Of a stretch of 64,000 nucleotides of DNA, positions 6,336-52,172 are shown one piece after another. The notes beneath the pieces were generated by a model, which did no database searches, was not told the origin of the DNA, and was given only the letters and a program-made list of their open reading frames with translations. Numbering within the stretch: the stretch's first letter is position 1; each line of letters opens with the position of its first letter. The position numbers were made by a program, and so were the translations under genes. The stretch is from an uncultured Chloroflexia bacterium (GTDB lineage: Bacteria; Chloroflexota; Limnocylindria; Limnocylindrales; CSP1-4). The stretch spans positions 512,062 through 576,061 of the forward strand of contig CAWBFV010000008.1 in NCBI GenBank assembly GCA_963788235.1, read 5' to 3'.

Positions 6336-6929
6336 CTAGCCCGGCAGGTCGCTCGGGACGTCGACGTCGCGCAGCGTCTCCCCGGTTGGATCGTCGAGGC
6401 GCCAGACGGCCGGGCGGATCACGCGGACGTCGAGCTCGCCGAGCAACGCTCGGAGACGACGTTCGCCCCCTGCCAGGAGTCGGTCGGCGGCGGCCCGAGC
6501 GGCGACGGATCGGGCAGCAATGGGCAGTGGTCGCGGACCCGCGTCGTCGGCGAGGACCGCTACCTCGTGCCCGTCGAGCGCGTCGAGCAGCCGGGCCAGG
6601 ACCGCGGGCACCAGCGCCGGCATGTCGCCGCCCACGACGAGGACCCATTCGATGGCCGGATCGACCGCGGCGAGGCCCGTCGCGAGACCGGCGAGCGGGC
6701 CGTCGAATGGTCGCGCGTCGCGCACCACGCGGACGTCGGCGGGCACGTCGCGCGCATCGTCAGGCGCCACCACCACGATCACGTCGCTGGTGAGACCGCG
6801 CACCGCGTCGATCGCCAGGTCGAGCATCGGCCGTCCATCGACCGGCTCCGCGAGCTTGTCCCGACCGAAGCGCGACGATCGCCCGCCGGCCAGGACGATC
6901 GCCCCGACGCGGTCCGCCGGGGGCGTCAT
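6336..6929 (-). CDS. mobA: Molybdenum cofactor guanylyltransferase
   Basis: GAIVLAGGRSSRFGRDKL N-terminal signature. The ATG overlaps the selB stop (ATGA at 6926-6929). Confidence 0.85.
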   Translation of the reverse strand: MTPPADRVGAIVLAGGRSSRFGRDKLAEPVDGRPMLDLAIDAVRGLTSDVIVVVAPDDARDVPADVRVVRDARPFDGPLAGLATGLAAVDPAIEWVLVVGGDMPALVPAVLARLLDALDGHEVAVLADDAGPRPLPIAARSVAARAAADRLLAGGERRLRALLGELDVRVIRPAVWRLDDPTGETLRDVDVPSDLPG

Positions 6930-8692
6930 CGACCGACAGCGGCCGGTGCCTTCGCGCCCGGCACGTGACCGGCCGGCGTGCGCCGCAGGATCGCGCGGCG
7001 GTCGAGGTCCGCGAGGATCGCCATCACGTACTTGCGGCTCGTGCCGGTCGCGTCGCGCAACGCGGCCGGCGTCAGCGGGTCGCGCGCAGCGAGCTCGAGC
7101 GCCGTCGCGGCGAAGTCACGGTACGTGGATGTCGCGTAGGCGAGGTCGTCGTCGAGGACGACGATCCGCCCGTCGCGCTCGAGCTGGCGAACCCCCGCGG
7201 TCGGACAACCGGCGGCCCGTGCGGCATCCGTCAGGGACGGCGGCGTCGGCACGGACAGGAGGGCCTCCACGCGGTCCATCGCCGCGACCGTCGCCGGGTC
7301 CGCGGCCGGTGCCGCGATGCCGGGTGCCTGCAGCACGTCGCCGTCACGGGTGAGGCGACTGTCGGCAACGACCCGGTCCAGCACGACACCGGCTGCCGCG
7401 AGCGCCTCGTCCCGTCGGACGGTGGCCGCGCGTCGCAGGGTCAGCGCGACCGACGTCCGGACCGCCGACGACGTCGCGCCCCCGCCGACCGCCTCGATCG
7501 CCGCGGTCTCGGCAGCGCCCGCGACATCGCTCGCCAGCTCGCCCCCGAGGATCCCGTGCAGGTCGAGGCGCGCCCCCGGCCGGGGATCGATCAACGCCCC
7601 CACACGCTCCGGCGTCTGGCGCCGACGCGACAGGCCGCGGGGTGGCAGGGGGTCAAGCACGAGCCCACCGATCGGCAGGACCGGTGCCCCGCGGCGCAGC
7701 ACGAATCGGTCGCCGGCCCGCAGCGCGATCGGCTGCGCGAGGCGAATGATCCCGGCGACACGGCCGTCGGGCAGCGAGATCGCGTCCCGCCCGGCACGAC
7801 CGACGACCGCATCGACCGCGGCGGTCCCCGCGTGCACCCGACCGGCCGCTCGATCCGCGACGACCCCGTCGAACGCCACCAGGACGCGGTCGGTGGCCGT
7901 GACCTCGGGGTCGACGGTGAGGACCATCCCGCGGTGGAGCGCGGCGCGCTCGACGCCCCCGAGGTTGAGCGCGGTCCGACCGCCGCGCTCGACTCGCTCG
8001 ACCGGGGACCCGTGGACCTGGATCTCGCGGATCCGCGCCCGGCTGCCGTCGCTCGGGATGAGGCCGAGCGTGTCGCCGCGCGCCAGCGGACCACCGCGCA
8101 GCGTGCCGGTGACCACGACGCCGCGGCCCTTCGCCGTGAAGACCCGGTCGATCGCGAGTGTGGCGGGGCGATCCGGCAGCCGCACCTGGTCCCGCAGCAC
8201 CAGCACGGCATCGCGGACCGCCTCGACGCCGGCTCCGGTCAGGCTCGAGACGGCAAGGATCGGGGAACCGGCAAGCACCGTGGCGGCGAGCATCGTCTCG
8301 ACCTGGTCGCGGACGGCGCGGACGCGCTCCGCGCCGACGGCGTCGACCTTGGTGATGACCACGATGCCGATCCCGATCGCGAGCGCGTCGAGCAGCGCGA
8401 GATGCTCATGCGTCTGCGCGCGCGGGCCGTCGTCGGCGGCGACGGCGAGCATCACCGCATCGATCTCGCCCGCTCCGACGAGCATGTTGCCGACCAGCTT
8501 GTCGTGACCGGGGACGTCGACGAAATCGATCGATGTGCCGTCCTCGAGATCGAGATGCGCGTAGCCGACGTCGATCGTCATGCCGCGCCGCTGCTCTTCG
8601 GGCAGGCGATCGGCATCGATGCCGGTCAAGGCGTGGAGCAGCCGCGTCTTGCCGTGGTCGATGTGGCCGGCCGTGCCGACGACGACCGTCAC
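6926..8692 (-). CDS. selB: Selenocysteine-specific translation elongation factor
   Basis: [12 protein letters not shown]1 motif, DVPGH, and long C-terminal winged-helix-type domains. GTG at 8692 overlaps the selA stop (GTGA). Confidence 0.9.
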
Positions 8693-10057
8693 GCGACGCT
8701 CGCAAGCGCAGCCGTGACCGCGGCCGCGACACTGGCATCGGCGCCGGGATCGACCGTCCGTAGGTCGAGCACCACGCGTCCGTCCTCGATGCGGCCGATG
8801 ACCGCGGGCTGTCCCGCGCGCAAGGCGGCAAGGAGCCTCGTCGCGGACCGCGCCGACAGGCCCACGCCGGCCGACGGCAGCGTCTCGCCGGGGAGCGAGC
8901 CACCACCGACGGTCGCCTCGAGATCGACGGCGTCCGCGTCCGCACCGATCGCCCGCGCGACCGCATTCGCCCGAGCCTGTACGCCGGCGAGTGGGGCCGC
9001 GATCATCCGCCAGATCGGGATGTCGAGGACCGCGCGCCCGGATCGGTACAACCCGAGGGTGAGCGCGACACCGGCCATGCGTCGCCTTGTCGGGCCGCAT
9101 CGCTCGTGCCAGCGGGTCACGACGCATCCGCGCGACGAGGTCCGCGCGACCGACGACCAGCCCTGCTTGCGGCCCCCCGACGAGCTTGTCGCCGCTGAAC
9201 GTCACGAGGTCCGAACCCGACGCCAATCGCTCCGCCGGCATCGGCTCGTGCGACAGGCCGTAGGCCGCGGTGTCGAGCAGCGCGCCGGAGCCGAGATCGT
9301 CGATCACGAACGCGTCCTGGCGATGGGCCAGGTCGGCCACCTCCGCTGGATCCGGGGCCTCGGTGAACCCGGTCATCGCGAAGTTCGAAGGGTGGACGCG
9401 GAGGACGGCGCGAGCGCGGCCGTCCGCCAACGGCGCCTCGAAGTCCTTTGCGCGCGTTCGATTGGTGGTCCCGACCTCGACCAGCCGCGCCCCGGCGCGC
9501 CGGATGATCTCGGGGATGCGGACGCCGCCGCCGATCTCGACCAGCTCGCCGCGCGACACGACGATCCCGCCGCGTCCGACCAGGCCGACCGCCAGCGCGA
9601 GCGCCGCGGCGTTGTTGTTGGTCACGAACGCATCCTCGGCGCCGGTCAGTGCCACCAGGTGGTCCTCGGCGACGCGCGCGCGCTGGCCGCGTCGGCCGCT
9701 CGACCGATCCATCTCCAGCAGCGCGTAGTCGCTCGCGACGGCAGCGACGGCCGCCGCGACCGCCAACGGCCAGGGCGCTCGCCCGAGATTGGTATGGATC
9801 AGCACACCGGTCGCGTTGATCACCGCGGGCAGCCCTGTCGTGTCGAACGCCTGGATCCGGCCCCGCGCCTGGTCGGCGAGCGCCGCCGCATCGCGCGGTT
9901 CGGCGCCGTCGCGGATCCGTGCTCGCTCCTCGTCCACGACGCGCCGAACGACCTCCGTCAGCGCCGGGGCATCCGACCCATCGACGCTCGGTCGAAGCCG
10001 GCGCAGCACGGCGTCGACGCTGGGCGGACGAGGACGTGCGACCGGTTTCGACGACAT
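8689..10057 (-). pseudogene. selA: L-seryl-tRNA(Sec) selenium transferase, reading frame broken near 9079
   Basis: N-terminus reads from ATG 10057, preceded by GGAGG, and includes FSGDKLVGGPQAG (PLP lysine). After ...RPDKAT the conserved continuation MAGVALTLGLYRSG...GGGSLPG...IGRIEDGRVVLDLRTV is in the next frame (track ORF 8689..9120). Confidence 0.9.
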
Positions 10058-10067
10058 CGGGCCTCCG

Positions 10068-10164
10068 TGGCGGGAACGCGTGGGAGTCGAACCCACCACG
10101 CCGCGCCGAGCGCGGCGCCACCGATTTTGAAGACCGGGGGACCCACCGGGGCCCATCCATTCCC
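10068..10164 (-). tRNA. selC: tRNA-Sec (anticodon UCA)
   Basis: 97-nt reverse complement GGGAATGG...CTTCAAA...GGTTCGACTCC...CGTTCCCGCCA. It shows a 6-bp D stem with a 4-nt loop, anticodon loop CUUCAAA, a long GC-rich variable arm, a T arm and an encoded CCA. Confidence 0.9.
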
Positions 10165-10230
10165 GGAGCGATGGTAATGCGCTCGGCCCTGACTCGGCCC
10201 GCACGGCGGCGGGCAACCTATCATCGGCGG

Positions 10231-13508: not shown

Positions 13509-15422
13509 GTGGCGAAACCGTATGTTCGTCTGACCCAGCCGATGGTCCGCGACACCAAGGACGGCCCCTTGCGCGCCGCTTCCTGGGATGAGGCGCTGGA
13601 CCGCGTGGTCGCCGGGTTCGCCGCCGCCAAGGCGGCGCATGGACCGACGACGTTCGGCACCTTCAGCTGCAGCAAGGCGACCAACGAGGTCAACTTCGCC
13701 GCGCAGAAGTTCAGCCGGGCCGTGCTGGGCAGCAACAACATCGACAGCTGCAACCGCACCTGACACGCCCCGAGCGTCGCCGGTCTGGCGACCGTGTTCG
13801 GTGCCGGTGGCGGCACAAGTTCATACCGTGAGGTCGAGGACACCGATCTGATCGTCCTCTGGGGCAGCAACGCCCGCGAGACGCATCCGATCTTCTTCCA
13901 TCACGTCCTCAAGGCCGTCAACAAGGGCGCGCGGCTCTATGCGGTCGACCCCCGGCGCACGTCGTCGGCGGAATGGGCCGACAGCTGGCTCGGCCTCGAC
14001 GTGGGCAGCGACATCGCGCTCGCGAACGCGGTCGGCCGCGAGATCATCGCCTCCGGACTGCACCATCGCGAATTCATCGAGCGGGCCACCGCCGATTTCG
14101 AGGCGTACGAGGCCACGGTCGAGCCCTACACGCTCGAGTACGCCGAACGCGAGACCGGCGTCCCGGCCGACGCGATCCGCGACCTCGCCCACGCCTTGGC
14201 GACAGCACCCCGCGCGATGATCTGCTGGACGCTCGGCATCACCGAGCACCACAACGCCGTCGACAACGTCCTCGCGCTGATCTCATTGGTGCTGCTGACC
14301 GGGCACGTCGGGCGGTACGGCAGCGGCGTCAACCCGCTCCGTGGCCAGAACAACGTCCAGGGCGGCGGCGACATGGGCGCACTCCCGGACCGGTTGCCGG
14401 GGTTCCAGCACGTCGAGAACGACGAGCTCCGCACGAAGTTCGACCAGGCCTGGGGCGTGACGATCCCACCGAAGCGCGGCTGGCACTTGTCGGGCATGTT
14501 CGATGCCATGGAGCGCGGCGAGCTGACCGCCGTGTACTGCATCGGGGAGAACCCCGTCCAGTCCGAGGCCGATCAGCATCGCGCGATCAAGCTGCTGTCG
14601 GGTCTCGAGATGCTCGTGGTCCAAGACCTGTTCCTCACGAAGACCGCCGAGCTGGCGGACGTCGTGCTCCCCGCGTCCGCGGCATGGGCAGAGGGTGAGG
14701 GCACCGTCACAAACTCGGAGCGACGGGTCCAGCGGATCCGCAAGGCGGTCGAGCCGCCAGACGGCGCTCGCGACGACCTCGCGATCATCTTCGAGATCGC
14801 CGACCGGATGGGCGCGAACTGGGGCGACCCAGCCGCCGAGCGGGTCTGGGACGAAGTCAGATCGCTATCGCCGGTCCACGCCGGGATGAGCTATCAGCGG
14901 CTCGAGGAGCTTGGCGGGATCCAGTGGCCGTGCTACGACGAGACCCATCCCGGCGAGCTGTTCCTGCATAGCCGGCTCTGGGAGGATCCCGTGCCCGGCA
15001 ATCGCGTGCCATTCGTCCCGGTCGAGCACGATCCGCCGGTCGACAAGCTCAGCGACGACTTCCCGATCCGGCTCACGACCGGGCGACGGCTCGACTCGTA
15101 CAACACGGGTGTGCAGACCGCGGGCTACACCTCGCCGTTGCGTCGCGGCGAGTCCCTCGACATCTCACCCGAGGATCTGGAGACCTATGGCCTCGCCGAC
15201 GGCGAGCGCGTCCGGGTCGTGTCTCGCCGAGGCCAGGTCGAAGCGCCCGTCCGGATCGATCCGTCGTTGCGGCCGGGTCTCACGTTCATGACGCTCCATT
15301 TCCAGGACGATGTCGCGACGAACCTGCTGACGATCGACGCGACCGATCCCAAATCCGGCACGGCGGAGTTCAAGGCGACCGCGATCCGGATCGAGAAGCT
15401 GGAAGAGGCCATCCCGGCCTGA
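13509..15422 (+). CDS. fdhA: Formate dehydrogenase catalytic (molybdopterin) subunit, selenocysteine-containing (UGA at 13761-13763)
   Basis: Track ORFs 13413..13763 and 13794..15422 are in the same frame. The junction reads NNIDSCNRT-U-HAPSVAGL, matching the FdhF-type ...ARVUHGPSVAGL active site. Downstream motifs VNPLRGQNNVQGGGDMGALP are also present. The gene lacks the N-terminal Fe4S4 domain; the protein begins at the equivalent of RLKTPMIR. Confidence 0.9.
13764..13800 (+). promoter_or_regulatory. Bacterial SECIS element
   Basis: Hairpin GTCGCC-GGTCT-GGCGAC (13776-13792). The GGUCU apical loop starts 19 nt after the UGA, the same loop sequence and spacing as I recall for E. coli fdhF. 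Confidence 0.75.
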
Positions 15423-17742: not shown

Positions 17743-19373
17743 GGAGAGCAGGACCCGCCGGCCTCGCGGTGGTCGCGATCGCGATGCTCGTGACGGGCTG
17801 TGGGCCGACGCCGATCCCGGCCGGTGCGCCGCCGGACCGTGCCCTCTCGAGCCCCCCGCCAGCCGCTGCGCCCATCCATACACCAGAGTCCGGCCCCGCG
17901 TCCGTTCCCTCTGCACCGGCGCCGCCGACCCCGCCTGAACCCCGCCCCGCGTCGGCATCAACGCGCGTCATCCACGAAGGCGCCATCAGCCCGAAGCCGC
18001 GATCGGTCGCGGATCGTGCCTGGGAGCCGGTCGTCGCCACCCACCCGACGGATCCCGACCGCATCGCGGTCGTCTACGAGCATCGCGGACCCGGCGCGGC
18101 GTGCTCGGTCAACCCGCTCATCCGCATCTCGCACGACGGCGGTCGGACGTGGCGGACGACGCGGTCGGGTCCGGGCGCTCGCTCGAGTCGGGGCATGGGC
18201 CTCCATGCGGCGATCGCCTGGGGGCCCGGACCGCGTGGCGGCACGCGCCTGTACTGGGCCAACATGACGTCGCCTGGTTGCGGCGCCGGGCGGTTCAGCC
18301 TGTCGACTGCGTACAGCGACGACGAGGGGCGGACCTGGTCGCGGCTTCGGGTCGAGCGTCGCACGCCGCCGTGGGTCGGCGGGTTCCCCGAGATCGCGGT
18401 CGATCGCGACCCGCGCAGCCCGAACCACGGGACGGTGTATGTCGGCTACAACTGGCTCGGAGCCGGCGCCCACGGACCGGGCTTCCGGTTGTTGGCGTCG
18501 TCGGACTTCGGACGCACGTGGCGGTCGACCGAGGTCAAGCCGGCACCCCTGGCGCGCGGGGCGATCGATTGGTGGCGCATCGCCTATCGATTGCGCCCGG
18601 CACCGGACGGCAGCGTGTACGCCGCCTGGTACCAGGTCGACGTGCGCCAGTGGGATCGCCGGAACATCTTCGCCAAGGGCGGCTCGGGCAACGTCGTCCG
18701 GCTCGGGGTCGGGATCGCCCGGATCAGGTTCGAGCCCGGCACCGGCCAATTCGCGATCGGCCCGTCACGGATCGCCACCCGGATCGCCGAAACGCCATGG
18801 ACCACATCGGGCGCCAGCGCCTCAGGCACGGCCGGCAACATCCGCCCCGACCCGATGTGGCAGTACGGCTTCGACGTCGACCCGGACGGTCGGCTCTATC
18901 TGGCGGTCGGTGGGTATGGCGCGGCGCGGCTCGGGTTCGGGCGGGGCACGATCCGGGCGGGCTATTCGGACGACCAGGGCCGGACCTGGCGATTCGCAAC
19001 GGTGCCGGCGGCGCCGCACGTCGACGGGCGGCGCCAATCGATGCTCCGCCCGAACCTCGTGACAGGACGGGGCTATGTCCTGGTCACGTTCCGGACGCTC
19101 GACGACGTCGGCGCCAACGCGACGATGGGGGCGGCGTATGCGGTCTCGGTCGACCGCGGCGCGACGTGGCGGTTCGGGCGACCGGTGCACGGCGTCCGCT
19201 GGCGCGCCTCGAATCTCGACGGCGTGGTCAACGGGGCCGGGCTGCGCGAGCGAGCCGAGCGGACCGCCGATGGCGACGTCATCTGGGCGTACGGCGACGG
19301 CCGTCTTGCGATCGGCCGGGCCGCGGGGCGAACGGCGATCTTCGGGGCGAGGATCCACATCGAGGTCCGCTGA
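17739..19373 (+). CDS. BNR-repeat (sialidase-fold) lipoprotein
   Basis: GTG overlaps the upstream stop (GTGA). Lipobox LVTGC. Five SxDxGxTW repeats (SHDGGRTW, SDDEGRTW, SSDFGRTW, SDDQGRTW, SVDRGATW). Confidence 0.7.
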   Translation: MRRAGPAGLAVVAIAMLVTGCGPTPIPAGAPPDRALSSPPPAAAPIHTPESGPASVPSAPAPPTPPEPRPASASTRVIHEGAISPKPRSVADRAWEPVVATHPTDPDRIAVVYEHRGPGAACSVNPLIRISHDGGRTWRTTRSGPGARSSRGMGLHAAIAWGPGPRGGTRLYWANMTSPGCGAGRFSLSTAYSDDEGRTWSRLRVERRTPPWVGGFPEIAVDRDPRSPNHGTVYVGYNWLGAGAHGPGFRLLASSDFGRTWRSTEVKPAPLARGAIDWWRIAYRLRPAPDGSVYAAWYQVDVRQWDRRNIFAKGGSGNVVRLGVGIARIRFEPGTGQFAIGPSRIATRIAETPWTTSGASASGTAGNIRPDPMWQYGFDVDPDGRLYLAVGGYGAARLGFGRGTIRAGYSDDQGRTWRFATVPAAPHVDGRRQSMLRPNLVTGRGYVLVTFRTLDDVGANATMGAAYAVSVDRGATWRFGRPVHGVRWRASNLDGVVNGAGLRERAERTADGDVIWAYGDGRLAIGRAAGRTAIFGARIHIEVR

Positions 19374-19418
19374 CGCGCGGCATCCCCAACCGGCCCCGGC
19401 ACGTCGCCTGAGCAGCGC

Positions 19419-19429
19419 TACACTCGGCC
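19419..19429 (+). promoter_or_regulatory. TACACTCGGCC motif; -10-like hexamer 7 nt upstream of ATG (candidate leaderless promoter)
   Basis: Second exact copy of the 11-mer. There is no Shine-Dalgarno sequence between it and ATG 19432. Confidence 0.35.
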
Positions 19430-19431
19430 CG

Positions 19432-21279
19432 ATGGACCTGCACGTCATCGGGCCCCTCGCCTTCCCCGCCGAGCGCGCCGCGGTCGACAGCGTGCTCGGG
19501 CAGCCCGAATCCGGCTGGGTCGGGGGCCCGCGCCGACCGGGGACCGAGGGGCACGCGTCGCGCGGCGGCCACGCGGTCCGTGCGCGGCGCTCCCAGCTGC
19601 TGCCGGCGCTCCACGCGGTCCAGGACCGCGTCGGGTGGATCAGCCAGCCGGCCCTCAACTACATCTCACGGCGGCTCGCCGTGCCGCCGGCCGAGGCGTA
19701 CGGCGTCGCGACCTTCTACGCGCTCTATGCGACCAAGCCAAGGCCGCCGGTCATGGCCCATGTCTGCGACGACATCGCGTGCCGGATCGCCGGCGCGGAA
19801 CGGATCTGCGATGACCTCGAGCGGGCGGTCGGGCCGGAGGGCGAGGCGGCGCGCGACGGGCAGGTCGGGTGGCTCCGGTCGCCGTGCCTGGGCCTGTGCG
19901 ACCTGGCACCGGCGGCCCTCATGACCGCAGCGGGCGAGGAGGCGTCGCTCGCCAGCGCCGCGCCGGTCGACGCCGCCGGGATCGTCGCGCGGCTCGAGGG
20001 CGCGGCGTTCGGTCGGCCGGCGCCGCGGCTGCCGCAAGCGGGCTCCGAGCACCTTCGCCTGTTGCGGCGCATCGGTGTCGTCGACCCGACGTCGCTCGAC
20101 GCGTACCGCGCGGATGGCGGCTACGAGGCGCTGTCGAAGGCGATGTCGATCGGCGCCGAGGCGGTCATCGCCGAGGTGACGGCGTCGAAGCTGATGGGTC
20201 GTGGCGGCGCCGCATTCCCGACCGGTCGCAAATGGGCCGCGGTCCGCGACCAGGCCGCGCAGCCGCACTACCTCGTGTGCAACGCCGACGAGTCGGAGCC
20301 GGGCACGTTCAAGGACCGCGTGCTCCTCGAGGGCGACCCGTTCGCGATCGTGGAGGCGATGACGATCGCGGCCTTCGCGACCGGTGCCAGCCAGGGCTAC
20401 CTGTACATCCGCGGCGAGTATCCCGAGGCGGATGCGCGGATCCGCGGCGCGATCGCTGCGGCGCGAGCAGCCGGCCTGCTCGGCGCCGACATCCAGGGCT
20501 CGGGCTTCGCGTTCGACATCGAGGTTCGCCGCGGGGCCGGGGCCTATATCTGCGGCGAGGAGACCGCGCTGTTCGAGTCGATCGAGGGCAAGCGCGGCGA
20601 GCCGCGCAACAAGCCGCCGTTCCCGGTCGAGGTCGGGCTGTTCGGCAAACCGACCGTCGTGAACAACGTCGAGACGCTCGCCAACGTGCCGCTGATCCTG
20701 GCGATGGGCGGCGATGCGTACGCCCGGATCGGGACGGAGGGATCGACGGGTCCCCGCCTGTTCTGCCTGTCTGGCCACGTCCAGCGGCCCGGCGTCTACG
20801 AGGTCGAGTTCGGTGCGACGCTGGGGGACCTGATCGGCATGGCCGGTGGCGTCCCGAACGACAAGGCGATCAAGGCCATCCTGCTCGGCGGCGCGGCGGG
20901 CGTCTTCGTCGGCCCCGACTCGCTCGATCTGCCGCTCACGTTCGAGGCGACGCGCGCCGCCGGCGCGACGCTCGGGTCGGGCGTGATCATGGTGTTCGAC
21001 GAGACCGTCGACCTCGTCGACACGCTCCGTCGGATCGCCCGGTTCTTCCGCGACGAGTCGTGTGGCCAGTGCGTCCCCTGCCGGGTCGGCAGCGTGCGCC
21101 AGGAGGAGCTCCTTGCCCGTCTTGCCGCGGGGTCGCACGTCCGCTCCCGGGAGGACGAACTCGGCCTGCTGCGCGAGATCGGCCAGGCGATGCGCGACGC
21201 ATCGATCTGCGGGCTTGGCCAGACCGCGTCATCGGCGATCGAGTCGGCGCTTCGGCAGCCGGGATTGGTCGCGCTGTGA
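19432..21279 (+). CDS. NAD-linked formate dehydrogenase diaphorase subunit, NuoE-NuoF (FdsG-FdsB-like) fusion
   Basis: NuoE-type 2Fe-2S cysteines (HVCDDIAC...SPCLGLC). NuoF motifs GRGGAAFPTGRKW and ESEPGTFKDR, and the 4Fe-4S motif ESCGQCVPCRVG. Confidence 0.9.
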   Translation: MDLHVIGPLAFPAERAAVDSVLGQPESGWVGGPRRPGTEGHASRGGHAVRARRSQLLPALHAVQDRVGWISQPALNYISRRLAVPPAEAYGVATFYALYATKPRPPVMAHVCDDIACRIAGAERICDDLERAVGPEGEAARDGQVGWLRSPCLGLCDLAPAALMTAAGEEASLASAAPVDAAGIVARLEGAAFGRPAPRLPQAGSEHLRLLRRIGVVDPTSLDAYRADGGYEALSKAMSIGAEAVIAEVTASKLMGRGGAAFPTGRKWAAVRDQAAQPHYLVCNADESEPGTFKDRVLLEGDPFAIVEAMTIAAFATGASQGYLYIRGEYPEADARIRGAIAAARAAGLLGADIQGSGFAFDIEVRRGAGAYICGEETALFESIEGKRGEPRNKPPFPVEVGLFGKPTVVNNVETLANVPLILAMGGDAYARIGTEGSTGPRLFCLSGHVQRPGVYEVEFGATLGDLIGMAGGVPNDKAIKAILLGGAAGVFVGPDSLDLPLTFEATRAAGATLGSGVIMVFDETVDLVDTLRRIARFFRDESCGQCVPCRVGSVRQEELLARLAAGSHVRSREDELGLLREIGQAMRDASICGLGQTASSAIESALRQPGLVAL

Positions 21280-22374
21280 CCCAGGACACGAGCGGGCTGT
21301 CGATGAGCCGCGACCCGGCGCCGGATCCGCGGTCGCCCCACGCCGGCCAGGCGCCTGCCGCGCAGCCGCTCACCGAGATCGTCCTGTTCCCGCCGGCCCG
21401 CCCCTCGAAGCCACCGGTGGCGCCACCGGTCGAGCCGCCACCGACCGTCGAGCTGACGATCGACGGGCAGACCGTCGCCGTCCCTGCGGGGACGACGATC
21501 CTCGGGTGCGTGCCGGGCGCTCGGCATCGACACGCCGACGCTGTGCTACGCCGAGAACCTGACGCCGGTCAACGTGTGCCGCGTCTGCGTGGTCGAGGTC
21601 ACCGGGTCGCGGGTGCTCGCCCCGGCCTGTTCGCGCAAGGTCGAGCCAGGGATGGAGGTCCAGACCGACACCGATCGCGTCCGGACCTCGCGCAAGGTCG
21701 TGCTGGAGTTCCTCGGCTCGTCGGTGGACGTGTCCTTGACCGGTCCGGCGACTCCCGACGGCACGATCCACGACTACATGGCCCGCTACGGCGCCGATCC
21801 GTCGCGCTACGGTCCGCCGGCGGAGGCCGCCCGCGCCGGGGAGCGCGACAGCCACGAGCCGGGGCATCATCACGCGCCTGCGGGCGATGCCACCACGGCC
21901 ACGGTGGCCCAGCCGACGAAGGTCGACAACGACCTCTATGTCCGCGACTACTCGAAGTGCATCCTCTGCTACAAGTGCGTCGAGGCGTGCGGCGAGGACG
22001 CGCAGAACACGTTCGCGATCGCGGTGGCCGGCCGCGGGTTCGATGCCCGCATCTCGACCGAGCAGGCCGTCCCGCTGCCGGAGTCGGCGTGCGTGTACTG
22101 CGGCAACTGCATCGGCGTGTGCCCGACCGGCGCGTTGATGGCCAAGCCCGAGTACGACATGCGGGCGGCCGGCACCTGGGATGAATCGGCCCAGACCGTC
22201 ACGAGCACGATCTGCCCGTACTGCGGCGTCGGCTGCGTGGTCGACCTGCACGTCCAGGACGACCGCATCCTGAAGGTGACGTCGCCGCTCGACTCATCGG
22301 TGACCGGTGGCCACCTGTGCATCAAGGGCCGGTTCGGCTTCGAGTTCGTGAACGAGCGGCCGCAGCAGGGCTAA
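21276..22374 (+). pseudogene. Formate dehydrogenase alpha, N-terminal Fe-S module only (NuoG-like), reading frame broken near 21505
   Basis: GTG overlaps the nuoF-like stop (GTGA). ...VELTIDGQTVAVPAGTTILG is in one frame and ACRALGIDTPTLCYAENLTPVNVCRVCVVEV... is in the next, consistent with an extra G in the GGG run at 21504-21506. Two ferredoxin-type CxxCxxCxxxC motifs follow. The Molybdop_Fe4S4 motif ICPYCGVGC...GHLCIKGRFGFEFVN is followed 6 codons later by the stop. Confidence 0.8.
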
Positions 22375-31438: not shown

Positions 31439-31783
31439 ATGCCGCCGTTCGAGAAGTCACCACCGGAGCTCATCGCGCGGTTCGATGCCATCGCCGAACG
31501 GCACCCCGACGCCCAGCGCAGGAAGATGTTCGGCTACCCGGCGCTGTTCGTCGGCGGGAACCTCGTGACGGGGCTGTTCGCCGATCGATGGATGATCCGC
31601 CTCGGGCCGGAGGATCTCGCGACGATGCTCGAGCTGCCCGGCGGCGGACCGTTCTCGCCGATGGCCGGCAAGTCGATGAAGGGCTACGCGACGGTCCCGA
31701 CGTCAGTCGTCGACGACGACGCGGCCATCGACGACTGGGTCAATCGATCGATCGCCTTCGGCCGGACGTTGAAGGCCAAATAG
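31439..31783 (+). CDS. TfoX N-terminal domain protein
   Basis: RRKMFGYPALFVGGNLVTGLFADRWMIRL matches the TfoX_N pattern. Confidence 0.7.
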   Translation: MPPFEKSPPELIARFDAIAERHPDAQRRKMFGYPALFVGGNLVTGLFADRWMIRLGPEDLATMLELPGGGPFSPMAGKSMKGYATVPTSVVDDDAAIDDWVNRSIAFGRTLKAK

Positions 31784-31862: not shown

Positions 31863-33288
31863 TCAGGCCCGGGCGGCCGGTGTGATGTTCTGGTTGCGCC
31901 GGAACAGGTTGGTCGGGTCGTAGCGGCGCTTGACGTCGGCCAGCCGCCGGTAGGTCAGGTCGGGATAGGCCTCGCGGATCCGCTCCTCGCCCTCGACCTC
32001 GAGGAAGTTGGAGTAGACGCCACGAGCACCGGGTCGGAGCGCCTCGAAGAAGCTCGTCGTCCAGGCCGCGTGGATCGGCGCCTCGGACGGGTCCTCGTAC
32101 GGCGTGATGATCAGGACCATCACCGGCGCCTCGCGGTGCGCGAAGGCCGTGGCGCCCGCTGGCACGCGCGCCATCGCGCCGCCGAGGATCCGGATCTGGG
32201 TCATCGCAAATGGCGAGCTCGGTGCCGCCATGTGCTCGAGGATCACGTCGATCGCGGTCTCGTCGAGCGCATCGAGGAACAGCGACCGGTGCGCCGCTGG
32301 AGCACGCCGCTCGGCGTCCTTGAGCATCGCGTAGATGCCCGGGTACGGCATCGGCATGACCGCCTCGGCCATCGGTGTCGCGAGCTGGCGGAACGGCTCC
32401 AGCGCCCGCTGGCCCTCGGCCGGATCGCCGTCGTAGACGAACATCACCGCGAGCGTCGGGCTTGCCCTGCACGGGCTCCGGGATGAACGGCGCAGGCGGT
32501 GCCGGCATCAGGACCGAGATCGTGGTCAGCGCCTCGGGGGCGGCAGCGGCCGTCGCCTCGAGCTGGCTGAGCACCTCGCGGGTGGGCGGCAGGAAGAGCG
32601 CGCCACCGAGGATCGTCGTGACGGGGTGCAGCCGGAACTGGAAGCGGGTGACGACGCCGAAGTTGCCACCACCGCCACGGACGGCCCAGAACAGGTCGGG
32701 GTGCTCGGTCTCGCTCGCGACGAGGATGCGGCCGTCGGCCGTCACGATCTCGACCGAGACCAGCGCGTCGATCGTCATGCCGTGCTTGCGTGCGAGCCAG
32801 CCGATCCCGCCGCCGAGGGTGAGGCCGGCGATGCCGACGCTGCCGGTGTCGCCGAACGGCGTCGCCAGGCCATGCTCGGCCGCGGCGACCGTGTACTCGC
32901 CGGCGGTCAGGCCGGCGCCGGCCCAGGCCAGCCGGGCGACCGGGTCGATGTGCAGGCCCTTCATGGTGCCGAGGTCGAGGACGATGCCGCCGTCGCTCGT
33001 TCCGTAGCCAGCGAGGCTGTGACCGCCGCCGCGGACGGCGAGCTCGAGCCCGGTCTCGGCCGCGAACAGCACGGTTCGCGCGACGTCGGCCGACGAGACG
33101 GCACGGACGATGCGCAGTGGGCGCCCGTCGGCGAGCGCGTCGTGGACCTGGCGGGCGTCGTCGTAGCCCGGATCCTCGGGACCGATGACGGTGCCGGCGA
33201 TCCCGGCCGCGAACGCGTCGAGGTCCTGGGTGCTGAAGGGCGCGGGTGCGAGGGCGAGGGCGGGGGCGGGGATACGGGCGAGGACCAT
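31863..33288 (-). pseudogene. FAD-binding oxidoreductase (PCMH/VAO type with BBE-like C-terminus), reading frame broken near 32455
   Basis: N-terminus from ATG 33288 (RGGGHSLAGYGTSDGGIVLDL, GLTLGGGIGW). After ...PEPVQGKP the conserved continuation LAVMFVYDGDPAEG...YSNFL...RLADVKRRYDPTNLFRRNQNI is in the next frame (track ORF 31863..32447). Confidence 0.8.
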
Positions 33289-33510
33289 TGCGGGACATCC
33301 TTTCGGTGTGGGGGCGCTGCGACCGGGGGGCGGGAGTGGGAGGTGGCGACTGGGGCGCCGTCTCAAGTGCCTCGATGGTGGCTGCCCCGACCCGCCGTGC
33401 CAGCCGTCAAGCGATCGCAGCCGCCCGTCGTCGCATGACGAGCGCGATGCGACGGATGACGATGTCGACGGCCTCGGCCGCGCGGCTATCCCCGCGGCAG
33501 CCGGCCCGCG

Positions 33511-33792
33511 TTGCATCAGATGCACGTACGGTCGCCAGATCGGCCCGCAACGTCGACGAATCGGTCGAAACCGTGCATCTGATGCAGCAGGTGCGACGTT
33601 CAGGGCCCGGGATCGACTGATCCGGTTCGATTTCGTGCACCTGATGCACAGATTCGACGACCAAAGGCCCTGTCGGCGACGTTGCGTGCATTTGGTGCAC
33701 GGCCATCGGGCATTTGCGGCATCAAACGCACGGAATCGACGCGTCGAGCCTCGTCTTGCCCGATGCAGGGCGGAAATGTGCGTCTGATGCAG
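33511..33792. repeat. Array of five 15-bp near-palindromes (core TGCATC-N-GATGCA) in a 578-bp non-coding gap
   Basis: Copies at 33511-33525, 33573-33587, 33635-33649, 33686-33700 and 33778-33792. The first three are spaced exactly 62 bp apart. The spacers share degenerate GGCCC and GAATCG/GATTCGAC blocks. Confidence 0.6.
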
Positions 33793-33866
33793 CGGATCGG
33801 CGCCTGCAGGCCCGGCGTCCCGCGCGGCGCCGCGCGCCCGCGCGCCCGAGCGCCGTTACCGGCTCG

Positions 33867-34748
33867 TCACGCCTCCAGGAGCCCGACCGCCGCGCAGTCC
33901 TCGGCGACCCGCTCGAGCAACCCCGCGTCGGACACCGCGCCGAACCCTTGCACCATCACCCGATCCACACCGACGTCCCGGTAGTCGCGCAGCCGGTCGC
34001 GACGCGCGGCCCCGACAGTGGCATCGGCCGGACCCCAGATGTGGACCGAGACCCGCAGGGTCGCTGGGTCGCGCCCGATCTCCTCGCACCGCGCCCGGAT
34101 CACCGGCAGTGCCGCCTCCACGTCCCGCGGCACCATCGCGTCGAGATTGAGCTCGTCCGCGAACCGCGCGGCCAGGCGCCACGTGACCTTGGGCCCGTTC
34201 CCGCCGATCAACACCGGGATCCGACCCCCCGCCGACTTCGGCTCGTGGATCGCGTCCTCCACCGAGGCGTACGGACCCGAGTACGTCGCGTGCCCCGGCC
34301 CGAGCATCCGGCTGATGATCTCGAGGTGATCGGCCAGGATCGCCAGTCGCTCCGGCGGGTCCGGGAACCCGTACCCGTACGCCCGCCATTCGTCTTCCTT
34401 CCAGCCCGCCCCGATCCCGAGCTCGACCCGCCCGCCGGAGATGACGTCGAGCGTCGAGAGCATCTTCGCGGTGAGACCCGCCGGTCGATACGCCGCCGCC
34501 AGCACGAGGTGCCCGAGGCGGGCGCGCGACGTCACGGCGGCGATCCCCGTCAGCTCGACGAACGGCTCGAAGATCGGCGCGTCGATGAGCGGCGGATCGA
34601 CCTGGAAGTGGTCGTACAGCCAGAGCGACTCGAACCCCAGCGACTCGGCCTGCCGGGCGACCTCCACGGTCCGCGCCCACGCCGTCGGACCGTCGAGCCC
34701 GAGGAACTCCCGATCGCAGCCTTGCGGCAGCGTGATCCCGACCTTCAC
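33867..34748 (-). CDS. LLM-class F420-dependent oxidoreductase
   Basis: GFESLWLYDHF, LGIGAGWKEDEWRAYGYGFP. GTG 34748 overlaps the upstream stop (GTGA). Confidence 0.8.
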   Translation of the reverse strand: MKVGITLPQGCDREFLGLDGPTAWARTVEVARQAESLGFESLWLYDHFQVDPPLIDAPIFEPFVELTGIAAVTSRARLGHLVLAAAYRPAGLTAKMLSTLDVISGGRVELGIGAGWKEDEWRAYGYGFPDPPERLAILADHLEIISRMLGPGHATYSGPYASVEDAIHEPKSAGGRIPVLIGGNGPKVTWRLAARFADELNLDAMVPRDVEAALPVIRARCEEIGRDPATLRVSVHIWGPADATVGAARRDRLRDYRDVGVDRVMVQGFGAVSDAGLLERVAEDCAAVGLLEA

Positions 34749-35788
34749 GCGCCGGCCTGCCACGGCCCGTAGGCGCCATCGATCCGTTCGCGGACCTCAG
34801 CGACCACCGCGTCATCGACCGTTCGTTCGTCGGCGATGGAGTGCCACAGCCCGGCCTCGCGGACGAACGCCCCGAGCGTCCGCATGGACGCCTCGGCGTC
34901 CGCCCAGGTCACGCCCATCGCCTCGGGGCGGATGTCGACGCCGGCGCGGTGCAGGGCGGCGACCATCTCGTCGGCCCCCGATCCGTGCAGCACCGACCCG
35001 AGCACGATCCCGAGCCCCACGGGTTGCCCGTGGATGAAGTGCTGACCCGTCCGCTTCTCGAGGTTGTAGAAGAAGAAGTGCTCCACGCCCTCGATGTGGC
35101 GCGGGTTCCAGCCCGACGCGTGGAACGTGTCGCCGCCCCAGCGATGGGCCTCCATCAGCGTGCGGATCCCGTGGTCGGTCACGTCGTGGATGGCATCGAG
35201 CGCACCGAGCACCGAATCGAGCCGCTCGCGCGCCGCCGCGACGAGCCGCTCGTCGTACGGCCACTGCCGTTCGAGCTTGCCCAGGTCCCGCGTCAGCCGC
35301 CAGTCCAGATGCGCGGTGTGATAGCACAGGATGTCGCCCACGCCGGCCCGATTCAGCCCGGCCGGCGCGCTCGCGATGACGTCGAAGTCGACGTACACGG
35401 CTTCCGGGATCGCAAAGCCGCGGTAGCGGACGATCCCATCCTCGCGGAGCCCCGAGCGGTGGCCGAACGGCGCGTTGACCGTCATCGCCGTGGGCACCTG
35501 GAACAGCGGCAGACGTCGTCGCCAGGCGATGAACTTCGCGACGTCGATCGCCTGCCCGCCGCCGAGACCGATGACGCTCGCGCTGGTGGGCAGGTCGTCG
35601 AGGAGCGCCTCGAGCGCGTCCCGCTCGAGCGTCCGGACGAGGTGGACGCCCGCCAGGCCCGGCCCCTCCAGCGTCTCCGAGAACCGCGGCCACAGGTCGT
35701 CCATCGTCACGACGAGATAGGGCCGGTGGGCGAAGTTCGGCAGCTCGCCGACGAGGTTGCGACCGAAGACGGTCGGGAAGCCGCTCAC
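34745..35788 (-). CDS. Iron-containing alcohol dehydrogenase superfamily, sn-glycerol-1-phosphate dehydrogenase (AraM/EgsA)-like
   Basis: IGLGGGQAIDVAKF, FQVPTAMTVNAPF, AGVGDILCYHTAHLDW. GTG 35788 overlaps the SDR stop (GTGA). Confidence 0.65.
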   Translation of the reverse strand: MSGFPTVFGRNLVGELPNFAHRPYLVVTMDDLWPRFSETLEGPGLAGVHLVRTLERDALEALLDDLPTSASVIGLGGGQAIDVAKFIAWRRRLPLFQVPTAMTVNAPFGHRSGLREDGIVRYRGFAIPEAVYVDFDVIASAPAGLNRAGVGDILCYHTAHLDWRLTRDLGKLERQWPYDERLVAAARERLDSVLGALDAIHDVTDHGIRTLMEAHRWGGDTFHASGWNPRHIEGVEHFFFYNLEKRTGQHFIHGQPVGLGIVLGSVLHGSGADEMVAALHRAGVDIRPEAMGVTWADAEASMRTLGAFVREAGLWHSIADERTVDDAVVAEVRERIDGAYGPWQAGA

Positions 35789-48973: not shown

Positions 48974-49975
48974 TCACTTGGCCGGCGTGAGCCACACCGG
49001 ATAGTCGCGGATCGCCTGCGGCGAACCGTCCTTGGCGGAGCCGTAGTAGACGCGGAGCGTCCCCCACTGCGCCTTCGGGACGTCGTACTGCACCGTGACA
49101 TCGAACGTGCCACGCGGCTCGCACCCGGCACCGCAATTCGTCATCGCGTGCTGGTCGACGAGCACCTTGCCCGACGCGTCGAGGATCGCGATCCGGAAGG
49201 TCGCCTCGAAGAGATCGCCGTTGCCGGTGACCCTGGCCGGGTTGCCCGCCGCGGCCCCGAAGGCCGGTCGATCGACGAAGATCTCCGGGAGCTGGTCGCG
49301 GAAGTCCTTGCGGGCTTGCGGGCCCTCGAGCACGATGCCCTCGGGTCCGAACGTCGTGACGGTCTGGCCCTCGACCTGGAACAGGACCGAGCGGACCGTC
49401 GAGAACTGGGTCAGCGTGTAGACCACCTGGCCGAGTCGGTAGAAGGACGATGCGCTGCCACCACCCGATGCGAATTCGCGCGACAGGTCGACGGTGGCGA
49501 CGCCGTTCTTGATCGAGATCCCGAGCAGCTTGGTGCCCGACGGGATGGCGGTCGAGATCTGCGCGTACTGATCGCGGATCGGGTCGACGGCCAGGAGCGC
49601 CTCCATGGCGGCGCGGGCGACGCCCGTCGTCTTCGGCACGACCCGGAGTGTCGGCACGAGCCCCGCGACACCGACCTTGCCACCGAGGACGTAGTAGGCG
49701 CGGATGACCATGGTCTCGGTCGGGGTCGATGGGCTGGGCGAAGTCGAGGGGCCACCCGATGGGCCACCCGACGGGCTGGTGGACGGTGTCGGCGACGGGC
49801 TGCTGGACGGGGCCGGCGTCTCGTCCGGAGGGCCGGCATCGATCGACGGGGCGGCCGTCGGTGGGGTGGTCGGGACCTGGCCGAGCCCGCCGGACGGCGA
49901 GCACGCGGCGGTAACGAGGACGAGGCTCGCAAGGGCGAGCGTCGAGAGGACGGACCGGTGACCGATGGTCTGCAT
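48974..49975 (-). CDS. GerMN-domain lipoprotein (LpqB-like position downstream of the two-component system)
   Basis: Lipobox LVTAAC, Pro/Ser linker, GerMN-like segment (VARAAMEALL...VATVDLSREF) and a second beta-rich domain. Confidence 0.65.
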   Translation of the reverse strand: MQTIGHRSVLSTLALASLVLVTAACSPSGGLGQVPTTPPTAAPSIDAGPPDETPAPSSSPSPTPSTSPSGGPSGGPSTSPSPSTPTETMVIRAYYVLGGKVGVAGLVPTLRVVPKTTGVARAAMEALLAVDPIRDQYAQISTAIPSGTKLLGISIKNGVATVDLSREFASGGGSASSFYRLGQVVYTLTQFSTVRSVLFQVEGQTVTTFGPEGIVLEGPQARKDFRDQLPEIFVDRPAFGAAAGNPARVTGNGDLFEATFRIAILDASGKVLVDQHAMTNCGAGCEPRGTFDVTVQYDVPKAQWGTLRVYYGSAKDGSPQAIRDYPVWLTPAK

Positions 49976-50027
49976 CGCGTGGGCTCCTGGACGAAAGACG
50001 GCTGATGAGGGCCTCAGCCTCGATCCG

Positions 50028-51462
50028 TTAGGTCGCCGTCACATCGCCGCCACGTAACGATCTAGCAACATCGCGCGGCAGCACGAGCTCGAGCCGAAGC
50101 CCGCCGCCGTCCCGGTTCATCGCCTGGAGATAGCCGCCCATGAGCGCGGCGTGCTCGGCGGCGATCGCCAGTCCGAGACCGCTGCTGCCACCCGAGCGCG
50201 ACGGATCGACCTTGGTGAAGCGGTCGAAGATCATCTCGAGCCGGTCCGGTGGCACGCCCGGCCCGCGGTCCGAGACGGCGATCACGATGTCCTCCTCGCG
50301 CGGCTCGACCACGATCTCGACGTCGGCATCGGCGGCGTGCTCCTTGGCGTTGTCGAGGAAGTTCGCGAGGATGCGCTCGAGACGGCGCGGGTCGGCGTCG
50401 ACGACGATCGGGCTGGCCGGCGGCGTGAACCGTGCCGCTGGGGAGCGTGCCACTCGAATCGTCTCGACCAGTCGGCCGAGATCGACGGGCTCGAGGGCGA
50501 CCTGCTCGGCATCGGCATCGAAGCGCGACAGCTCCATCAGCTCCTCGACCAGCGTGCGCAGCCGCCCGACGTCGGTGACCACCATCTCCGCGGCGCGCCG
50601 GCTCGCCACGGGCAGCCGCTCGAGGTGCTCGCCGACGATCGACGCCTCGGCGACCAGCGCGGTCAGTGGCGTCCGTAGCTCGTGCGACACGTCGGCCACG
50701 AACCGGCGGTTCTGGTGCTGGGCGCGCTCGAGTCGGCGGATGGTCTCGGACAGCCGGTCGACCATCCGGTTGAACCGGTCGGCCCACGTCCCGAACTCGT
50801 CGTGCGACGTGACCGGCACGCGAGCGAGCAGGTCGCCGCGCTCGATTCGCTCGGCGGTCCGGCCGGCCTCCTCGATCGGTGCCAGGATCCCGCGGGCCAG
50901 GATCCGCGCCGTGAGCAGTGCGAGCGCGATCAGCACGAGCGACCCGATCAGCATGGCGATCCGGAGCTGGTCGATCGCGTCGTCGATCGCGGTCACGTCG
51001 CGCACGAAGTAGAACGCCGGGCCACCACCCGGGGCCAACCCGCCCACGACCAGGCGCGGCGTGCCCGCGACGTCGAGCCAGGCGTAGGCGAGCTCGCCTC
51101 GTCCGACGCGCGCCGGGACGTCGGCTGGCAATCGCGCAAGCAGCCCGTCGAGCGCGTCGTTGGACTGGACCGTCGAGTCGTTCCCCAGGTCGACGAGCGT
51201 CTCGACGCCCCGCTGCCGGAACGTGTCGATCAGCCCGCTCCGCACGATGTCGTCCTGCGTCGGTCGGGCCGGCAGCCTGCCGGCCGGGCACGATCACGGT
51301 CAGGTCGAACTTCGCCTGGTCGGAGGCGTCGGTCAGCGTCTGGGCGTGGAGGCGCGCGTCGACGAAGACGGATGCCCCGACCCCGAGCACGGCCGCCGTG
51401 ACCGCCACGAGCAGGACCAGGGCCCCGACGAGTCGGGCCCGGACGCCTCGCGGCCAGCGCAT
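50028..51462 (-). pseudogene. Sensor histidine kinase (MtrB-like; HAMP-HisKA-HATPase), reading frame broken near 51280
   Basis: N-terminal TM and ...FDLTVIVP in one frame. AGRLPARPTQDDIVRSGLIDTF...HAMP...SHELRTPL...GGSSGLGLAI in the next frame. Confidence 0.85.
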
Positions 51463-51482
51463 CCCTGCCTCGCCTCCGCCCG

Positions 51483-52172
51483 CTACCGCGCGGCCTTGTA
51501 GCCGGCGCCGCGGACCGTGAGGATCAGCTCCGGGGCAGCCGGGTCCGCCTCGATCTTGGAGCGCAACCGCCCGACCGCGACGTCGACCAGTCGCGAGTCG
51601 CCCAAGTAGTCGTAGCCCCAGATCCGGTCGAGCAGGGTGTCCCTGGCCAACACCTGGCCTGGGTGTCGGGCGAGGTCGACGAGCAGGTCGAACTCGGTGC
51701 GCGTCAACGGGATCTCCTCGCCGGTCCCGTCGCGGTGCACGCTCCGCCCGGCGAGGTCGATGACCAGCGGACCAAGGCGGAGGGTCGTGCGGTCCTCATC
51801 CTCTGGGCGACCGACGCGTCGAAGCGCGGCGCGGACGCGGGCGACGAGCTCGGGCACCTCGAACGGCTTGCGCACGTAGTCGTCGGCACCGGCCTCGAGA
51901 CCGACCACGACGTCGATGGTGTCGGCTCGCGCGGTGAGCATCACGATCGGCACCGTCGAAGTCTTGCGGATCGCCCGGGCAACCTCGAGGCCGTCGATCC
52001 GCGGCAGCATCACGTCGAGCAGCACGAGATCGAAGGGCGCGGCCGCGAACCGGTCGAGCGCGGCACGGCCGTCATCCGCGGTCTCGACCGTGAAGCCCGC
52101 GTTCTGCAGGCCGATCGCGGTCACTTCGCGGATCGACGGGTCATCCTCGACGAGCAGGATCCTGGCGTCCAC
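51483..52172 (-). CDS. OmpR-family response regulator (MtrA-like)
   Basis: ILLVEDD...DLVLLDVMLP receiver domain and C-terminal winged helix (LTRTEFDLL...TVRGAGYK). Confidence 0.9.
   Translation of the reverse strand: MDARILLVEDDPSIREVTAIGLQNAGFTVETADDGRAALDRFAAAPFDLVLLDVMLPRIDGLEVARAIRKTSTVPIVMLTARADTIDVVVGLEAGADDYVRKPFEVPELVARVRAALRRVGRPEDEDRTTLRLGPLVIDLAGRSVHRDGTGEEIPLTRTEFDLLVDLARHPGQVLARDTLLDRIWGYDYLGDSRLVDVAVGRLRSKIEADPAAPELILTVRGAGYKAAR

Follow-up and report, generated by a model that had tools for sequence, protein, structure and literature searches.

The longest intergenic gap in a 64-kb stretch of DNA from an uncultured Chloroflexia bacterium (contig CAWBFV010000008.1, positions 512,062 to 576,061; this whole 64,000-nucleotide stretch is the window below) holds an array of short palindromes, placed between a luciferase-like monooxygenase (LLM) gene and the start codon of an FAD-binding oxidase gene. 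This layout raises the question of whether the palindromes form a switch for the oxidase. The original prediction for this locus read them as a decayed 62-bp tandem repeat carrying operators for a dimeric protein, in the manner of iteron, centromere-like or cooperative-repressor arrays. Our analysis indicates that the array is not a dedicated control region of the oxidase, because it sits behind the LLM gene, upstream of the oxidase's own conserved regulatory region, and because it is the local copy of a module found behind unrelated genes. Judged by its sequence relatives, it probably represents about 1.5 copies of a short mosaic repeat, non-coding and dispersed, that belongs to Limnocylindrales-type Chloroflexota and is comparable to repetitive extragenic palindromic (REP) sequences and bacterial interspersed mosaic elements (BIMEs) or to miniature inverted-repeat transposable elements (MITEs).

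The gap occupies positions 33289–33866 (578 bp) between the stop codon of the upstream LLM gene (33867–34763, minus strand; Pfam PF00296, E = 1.6e-42) and the start codon of the downstream oxidase gene (31863–33288, minus strand), whose product carries a berberine-bridge-enzyme (BBE) domain. As predicted, it is the longest non-coding gap of the window and comparatively low in GC: codon periodicity is lacking across all 578 bp, the longest non-coding-like stretch by this measure runs from 33241 to 33856 (616 bp, with a runner-up of 421 bp), and the GC minimum in the gap is 0.61. The five reported 15-mers are present in the sequence as site 1 (TTGCATCAGATGCAC, 33511–33525), site 2 (GTGCATCTGATGCAG, 33573–33587), site 3 (GTGCACCTGATGCAC, 33635–33649), site 4 (GTGCATTTGGTGCAC, 33686–33700) and site 5 (GTGCGTCTGATGCAG, 33778–33792). 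Their consensus is the 7-1-7 palindrome GTGCATC-N-GATGCAC, and the 13-bp cores of sites 1 and 2 are perfect palindromes. The reported spacings of 62, 62, 51 and 92 bp likewise hold, with the refinement that a repeat finder located a degenerate site missing from the earlier list, site 4b (CGGCATCAAACGCAC, 33717–33731), which divides the 92 bp into 31 and 61 bp and makes the series 62, 62, 51, 31 and 61 bp. The array starts 75 bp from the LLM stop codon, and over 220 bp separate it from the oxidase start codon. When one mismatch is allowed, TGCAYCNGATGCA is matched nowhere in the 64-kb window except in the array, and the five hits with at least 11 of 14 matches to the 15-mer GTGCATCNGATGCAC are all array sites (shuffles expect 2.3 per 64 kb).

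The same arrangement was recovered elsewhere by two pattern scans, one that sought pairs of cores 35–65 bp apart in a single genome from each species and one of metagenomes. The first returned arrays L005 and L010, on two contigs of a single metagenome-assembled genome (MAG; uncultured Chloroflexia, MFD02416.bin.2.31), and the second returned L034, on a soil metagenome contig. Because both large pattern scans demanded two perfect cores, the palindrome family is under-sampled. Modules sit just past gene 3′ ends. L005 has three 15-mers with spacings of 51 and 81 bp and lies 29 bp past the stop codon of mfd, with a convergent membrane-protein gene opposite (the end of this mfd gene is affected by frameshifts, several of the loci being long-read assemblies that contain them). 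L010 has four 15-mers, spaced 51, 30 and 51 bp, and lies 19 bp past the gatA stop codon, ending 10 bp short of the stop codon of the convergent gene. The six 15-mers of L034 (spacings 61, 50, 62, 50 and 50 bp) lie between an OmpR-type response-regulator gene and a convergent ammonium-transporter (amt) gene. At these other loci the module starts 19–151 bp past a stop codon, and four of the five loci lie between convergent genes, so no promoter is expected at the other module loci.

Alignment with L005 and L010 resolves the internal organization of the window array. The modules of L005 and L010 are each 147 bp long, with about 24 nt (TTGCATCAGATGCAA-CATCTCGAC) inverted at both ends, and positions 33635–33792 of the window form a four-site module (spacings 51-31-61) that is colinear with them (51-30-51) save for a 10-bp insert. 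The units, each a 7-1-7 palindrome with an asymmetric flank, (C/G)GTCGA, common to all of them and located 4–5 nt from the palindrome, are assembled alternately into four-site modules of about 147 bp with 51-30-51 spacing, and variants are one helical turn longer, the difference in length being 10–11 bp. Unit orientation, as read from this low-information flank (8.7 bits), alternates within every array. An nhmmer module profile built from the L005, L010 and window rows detected L034 (E = 2e-11), the orthologous oxidase locus L001 (E = 2e-10) and a second gatA locus, L053 (E = 3e-28). It also identified sites 1 and 2 of the window as a partial second module (33509–33593, E = 8e-8), a stretch that lies outside the profile; the score of 33635–33792 is not independent, because that stretch is a row of the profile. 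Nothing further was detected in the window or in the remaining orthologous FAD-oxidase loci. Tandem Repeats Finder called no 62-bp tandem repeat in the array, because the spacers differ from each other, and with unlike spacers and alternating units the array is not the simple decayed direct repeat that had been proposed.

In all, the module is seen at no fewer than four unrelated loci across the clade, at least two of them in one MAG. The original prediction had named a dispersed REP-like element at many unrelated loci as the outcome that would refute it, and this largely describes what we found, because the same module stands behind mfd, gatA and a response-regulator gene; the agreement is in kind, whereas in number there are three other loci only. 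Taxonomically, the MtrA-like regulator of the window shares 94% and 91% identity with proteins whose names assign them to Candidatus Limnocylindrales, and the best named relatives of the L010 GatA fall there too. Because the proteins of both loci point to the same group, the palindrome family belongs to one order-level clade of Chloroflexota.

Orthologous sites differ in whether they hold the module. Intact orthologues of the FAD oxidase are numerous (468–469 amino acids). In L001, where the oxidase is 92% identical and the LLM gene is also upstream, the array is present: sites 1 (93%), 4 (80%) and 5 (80%) are conserved, as is site 4b, in which all 15 aligned bases are identical save for a 1-bp insertion in L001, and sites 2 and 3 have decayed (67% each). 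L002, with an oxidase 82% identical, has a 228-bp gap and no palindrome site; L003 and L048 (80% identical) retain array remnants only, among them a decayed remnant of site 5 in L003; and L049–L052 have a different gene upstream of the oxidase, encoding an AraC-type regulator or a GMC oxidoreductase. The gatA site behaves similarly. The module occurs in L010 and L053, two loci whose GatA proteins share 94% identity, and is absent from L054 (47-bp gap) and L055 (110-bp gap), where GatA is 88% identical to the L010 protein. By these comparisons, modules are gained, lost or decay between related genomes. Site 2 also varies among soil-metagenome contigs (33577 A>G, 33581 G>C). An apparent deletion of a 62-bp unit in one soil run, a joint that skips 90 and inserts 28, was not used, as its evidence amounts to 21 letters from a single contig, and another contig of equal depth covers this stretch without gaps. 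A G+C-rich low-complexity run, (GCCCGCGC)n, which Tandem Repeats Finder placed between the array and the LLM stop codon (33810–33854), is absent from L001. Separately, the LLM–FAD gaps of L003 (5700–5800) and L048 (about 9650–9850) contain other short inverted repeats (GATGCG-N10-CGCATC, ATGCGCCGATTTCGTCGCAT), which perhaps represent a divergent relative of the palindrome unit.

The FAD oxidase has an upstream element of its own. A 13-bp direct repeat, two copies of TCGTCATCCGTCG with a 21-bp period (33429–33462, minus strand), lies outside the array, 130–150 nt upstream of the oxidase start codon, and is followed by a −35-like CTTGNC block and then a short conserved hairpin. It is found in all nine orthologous loci (the window, L001–L003 and L048–L052), whichever gene is upstream, is 92% identical between the window and L001, where the array is 61% identical, and shows no enrichment elsewhere in the window. 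The repeat is likely to be the real cis-regulatory element of the oxidase, for example a site for a winged-helix activator. The oxidase thus has a conserved upstream region of its own, and the array is an extra feature that separates this region from the end of the LLM gene. The 'related hairpin' previously noted at 33430–33453 proved unrelated to the palindromes: its pairing is not conserved in L001, the direct repeat to which it belongs is. For the oxidase, the result is therefore negative, in that its likely control element is the direct repeat and not the palindromes. The oxidase coding frame switches near 32450–32470, where an extra G at 32457 produces a frameshift; because a soil-metagenome contig lacks exactly that base, the insertion probably reflects either misassembly or a pseudogene confined to this strain. 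Convergent to the oxidase is a gene for a TfoX_N-only protein of 114 amino acids (31439–31783, plus strand), kept in place in six of seven distinct orthologous loci and missing in L003.

Among the scanned open reading frames of the window, we found no regulator, par, rep, transposase or REP-associated tyrosine transposase (RAYT) gene, which bears out the earlier remark that no regulator is adjacent. The same frames contain no cas domains, and the array repeats are degenerate and alternate in orientation, unlike those of a CRISPR. With a permissive threshold, Rfam returned chance sub-threshold hits only, the best being to an miRNA and a snoRNA model from eukaryotes, which scored 27 and 23 bits versus gathering scores of 69 and 44. 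A promoter scan gave no promoter-like site; a terminator scan gave a single terminator-like hit (33610–33623, plus strand), between sites 2 and 3, and no T-run terminator on the palindromes; and no plasmid or phage record matched the array in BLAST. The original prediction had also considered that the region might encode a conserved protein in relatives. A 74-amino-acid gene is indeed called in the L001 gap, and we rejected it as coding because codon periodicity is lacking and gaps relative to the window break the frame.

The pattern of conservation sets the cores apart from the DNA between them. Between the window and L001, the array is less similar than the third codon positions of the flanking genes (82–83%), cores are 81% identical (73/90) and spacers 52% (99/191; Fisher p = 2e-6), and the alignment has only three gap columns in the 282 bp of the array, whereas the neighbouring non-coding stretches are gap-rich. 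Between L010 and L053, the module is 80% identical and ungapped, compared with 68% for gatA third codon positions, a synonymous-site benchmark inflated by strong GC3 bias, and 49% for the flank; the terminal repeats of about 24 nt are the best conserved parts. The distances between sites stay constant even where the spacer sequences have diverged to about 50% identity, and the spacing classes of roughly 30/31, 50/51 and 61/62 bp are common to the window and the other loci. A 10.3-bp period fits the spacings best (vector strength 0.93), and with the 15 spacings treated as independent, 0 of 5,000 random sets equal this fit. Because cores and their distances are conserved and the spacers are free, the pattern suggests binding by a putative dimeric protein on one face of double-stranded DNA. 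In the mechanism that we propose for a dispersed repeat, one sequence-specific dimer, a putative host factor or transposase, would bind the double-stranded palindromes; its contacts along a single face of the DNA would resemble the recruitment of DNA-binding proteins by BIME and REP clusters at 3′ ends; and any effect on flanking genes would be generic, such as a 3′-end barrier or insulation.

Several observations weigh against a dispersed repeat of this kind. The helical phasing is not significant when the spacings are counted as three length classes (611 of 5,000 random triples are equal), so that the original claim that all sites lie on one DNA face stands as regards spacings near whole turns and fails as regards significance. 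Unit orientation depends on the low-information flank, and this flank tag lies away from the stem end, unlike the tags of GTAG and CGTC REPs. The 64-kb window has a single array, and some 190 kb of further Limnocylindrales-like sequence, chosen on other grounds, has none, whereas classical REPs are far denser; the scanned frames of the window, as noted, hold no transposase or RAYT gene; and no target-site duplication is recognizable, the flanks of filled and empty sites being too diverged to align. Single units of the window form weak hairpins (−1.5 to −8.3 kcal/mol, z = +0.25 to −2.5), and since the palindrome centre is one base, each has a 3-nt loop and a 6-bp stem. On either strand, the array as a whole folds far more stably than shuffled sequences (z = −6.1 and −5.3), although these scores are not specific, because any array of mutually complementary palindromes folds well. 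This folding bears on a reading in which the element acts as RNA or single-stranded DNA, either as 3′ untranslated hairpins for termination or exonuclease protection or as substrates of a tyrosine (HUH-type) transposase, as for REPs and REPINs. Its position past stop codons agrees with published REPs (PMC3733652), some units of L005 and L034 have 8–10-bp stems (−12 to −14 kcal/mol), L034 offers a single case of a symmetric double change (A5G with T11C), and G·T-type mismatches outnumber C·A-type ones by 12:4, a bias that takes its orientation from the flanks only and is not significant (p = 0.077). The weak window hairpins, the lack of T-run terminators on the palindromes and the kept spacing, which independent hairpins would not be expected to show, leave this reading distinctly improbable in our judgement.

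The kept spacing is among the features that suit another account, according to which the module is not selfish DNA and has been selected by the host as an architectural element. Phased palindromes, four of them at 5-3-5 turns of a helix of about 10.2–10.3 bp, would bind a putative dimeric protein, which would assemble on one DNA face, or wrap or coat the DNA over some 150 bp, at convergent junctions and might act as a topological barrier, as a transcription roadblock or in nucleoid organization. The spacings do cluster at 3, 5, 6 and 8 turns of such a helix, and the 10–11-bp steps between length variants, the constant spacing between drifting spacers, the excess of core over spacer conservation, the ungapped L010/L053 module above synonymous-site conservation and the convergent setting of four of the five loci all point the same way. 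Yet the module has been lost without trace from orthologous sites at which GatA is 88% identical, single sites decay (2 and 3 in L001, 2 in L053), the phasing is not significant over three length classes, no candidate protein was found and the third-codon-position benchmark is inflated by the GC3 bias, and we therefore hold this element and the roles assigned to it to be unlikely, if well short of negligible. The locus-specific model, in which a cooperative repressor or partition protein acts on an operator, iteron or centromere-like array to control the oxidase or the region, retains in its favour the dimer-type palindromes with conserved cores, a spacing compatible with one face and the location of the array upstream of the oxidase start. 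It is contradicted by the occurrence of the same modules at unrelated loci between convergent genes, by the absence of the array from orthologues (80–82% identity) that keep both gene and direct repeat, by the lack of regulator, par or rep genes in the scanned frames and of plasmid or phage similarity, and by the location of the array itself, which adjoins the LLM 3′ end and is remote from the oxidase start codon. We consider it very improbable; what survives of the original operator claim is the dimeric-protein-like character of the palindromes, and what does not is their dedication to one locus. A dispersed mosaic repeat thus remains the reading that we favour.

Most of the 44 loci returned by the scans share the core 13-mer only (low-GC coding repeats, a 39-bp palindrome, a 23-bp tandem array and a Microbacteriaceae pair) and were set aside as other families. 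An Obscuribacterales MAG (L006, 5380–5650) and a metagenome contig (L028, 3480–3745) carry the core TTGCATCWGATGCAA within a 39-bp perfect palindrome, CACTATAAAAACTTGCATCAGATGCAAGTTTTTATAGTG, in four copies within about 340 bp, with flanks and spacings (86, 99 and 58) unlike those of the window array. High-GC contigs hold iteron-like tandem arrays with a 23-bp period, CCAGAGG-TGCATCAGATGCA-CGT (L019, 900–1005; L022, 3955–4055; L017, 1550–1675); one of these contigs is 64.8 kb long with high coverage, and the arrays are possibly plasmid or phage repeats that use the same 13-mer. In Agrococcus sp. KRD186 (L007, 6560–6632) and on the Microbacteriaceae-like contigs of L036 and L037, a conserved intergenic site pair, TGA-TGCATCAGATGCA-ACA, 55 bp apart in L007, resembles a conventional control region that has two operators and happens to use this core. 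At L010, the gene convergent to gatA (1358–3340, minus strand) encodes a bPH_2-domain protein whose low-complexity Gly/Ser/Glu/Pro tail is very long and consists of hexanucleotide-like repeats.

Elsewhere in the window, an open reading frame at 6926–10216 (minus strand, 1,096 amino acids) combines SelA and SelB domains and is either a fusion or the result of an assembly frameshift that merged two genes. Nearby genes of the molybdopterin oxidoreductase or formate dehydrogenase type (13794–15422 and 19075–22374) suggest a selenocysteine system. An operon-like set at 48974–52172 (minus strand) resembles MtrA-MtrB-LpqB, with a response regulator, a histidine kinase and a Germane/Gmad2 protein, an arrangement usually regarded as actinobacterial and present here in a Limnocylindrales-type genome.

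Much is known about the small dispersed palindromic repeats of Proteobacteria, and Limnocylindria are an abundant uncultured lineage of soil and freshwater. We found no literature description of such a repeat for Limnocylindria, and a full-text search with 11- and 13-mers returned primers and unrelated sequences only. The build of the repeat is unusual in its near-perfect 7-1-7 palindromes, its four-site modules and its retention of spacer length without spacer sequence. In practical terms, of possible use to repeat specialists and to those who annotate such MAGs, the module marks 3′-end intergenic DNA that should not be taken for a promoter or operator and is a possible strain-typing marker, and the 15-mer GTGCATCTGATGCAC offers a defined bait for the putative binding protein. 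Were the architectural reading true, the module would be a new kind of sequence-specific 3′-end, topological or roadblock element in Limnocylindrales.

Among known recognition sites, neither Fur/Nur 7-1-7 boxes nor LrpB, matS, parS or sigma-54 sites are known to match the array in both sequence and spacing. In sopC of the F plasmid, tandem 43-bp units each contain an inverted repeat with 7-bp arms, and plasmid centromere and iteron arrays share with the window array a unit length near whole turns and, in every unit, a short inverted repeat of the kind suited to a dimeric protein; they differ from the present modules, which occur at several chromosomal loci of one genome, in alternating orientation, with unlike spacers and between convergent genes. 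Ss-LrpB, of the Lrp/AsnC type, binds the box TTGYAWWWWWTRCAA at a spacing of about three turns. Operator arrays of this type are similar in their 15-bp palindromes, their TTGCA...TGCAA arms and the 30–31 bp between inner sites, whereas the window palindromes are not A/T-rich at the centre, lie outside promoters and are not conserved with the downstream gene; the window contains no Lrp/AsnC gene, only a weak sub-threshold AsnC-type helix-turn-helix hit inside a PucR-type protein. Mycobacterial interspersed repetitive units (MIRUs) are intergenic units of 40–100 bp in varying number, direct repeats with short overlapping reading frames. They resemble the array in being intergenic, here also between co-directional genes, and differ from it in that the array is palindromic and alternating and has no coding signal.

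The nearest likenesses are to MITEs and REPs. With MITEs of the Correia/NEMIS, RUP and ERIC types the module shares a length of about 150 bp, a non-coding and intergenic character, terminal inverted repeats (in L005 and L010) and presence or absence at orthologous sites (gatA and LLM–FAD); it differs in that the core of its terminal repeat recurs internally and in that orthologous copies appear conserved and not freely decaying. REPs lie downstream of genes and have one-sided tags, inverted dimers and clusters, and published families have stems of 8–9 bp and loops of 4–5 nt; CGTC-type REPs occur without a dedicated transposase nearby, and CGTC repeats are not reported from Chloroflexi (PMC3733652). 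The REP, BIME and REPIN elements of Enterobacteria and Pseudomonas are like the array in their tagged palindromic units, inverted orientation, dimers and clusters, extragenic position just past genes and differences between related genomes. They are unlike it in that its core is a near-perfect 7-1-7 palindrome with a weak hairpin (15 bp with 6–7 pairs, the palindromes of REPs spanning 20–40 nt and some units at other loci having extended stems), its (C/G)GTCGA tag stands 4–5 nt off the palindrome and not, as GTAG or CGTC does, at the stem end, its family conserves spacer length and not spacer sequence, and its copy density is low in the sequence examined. Because the tag is off the stem end, the stems are short and neither a target duplication nor, in the scanned frames of the window, a RAYT or transposase was seen, we place the array outside the named REP and MITE families, as a repeat that is nonetheless akin to both.

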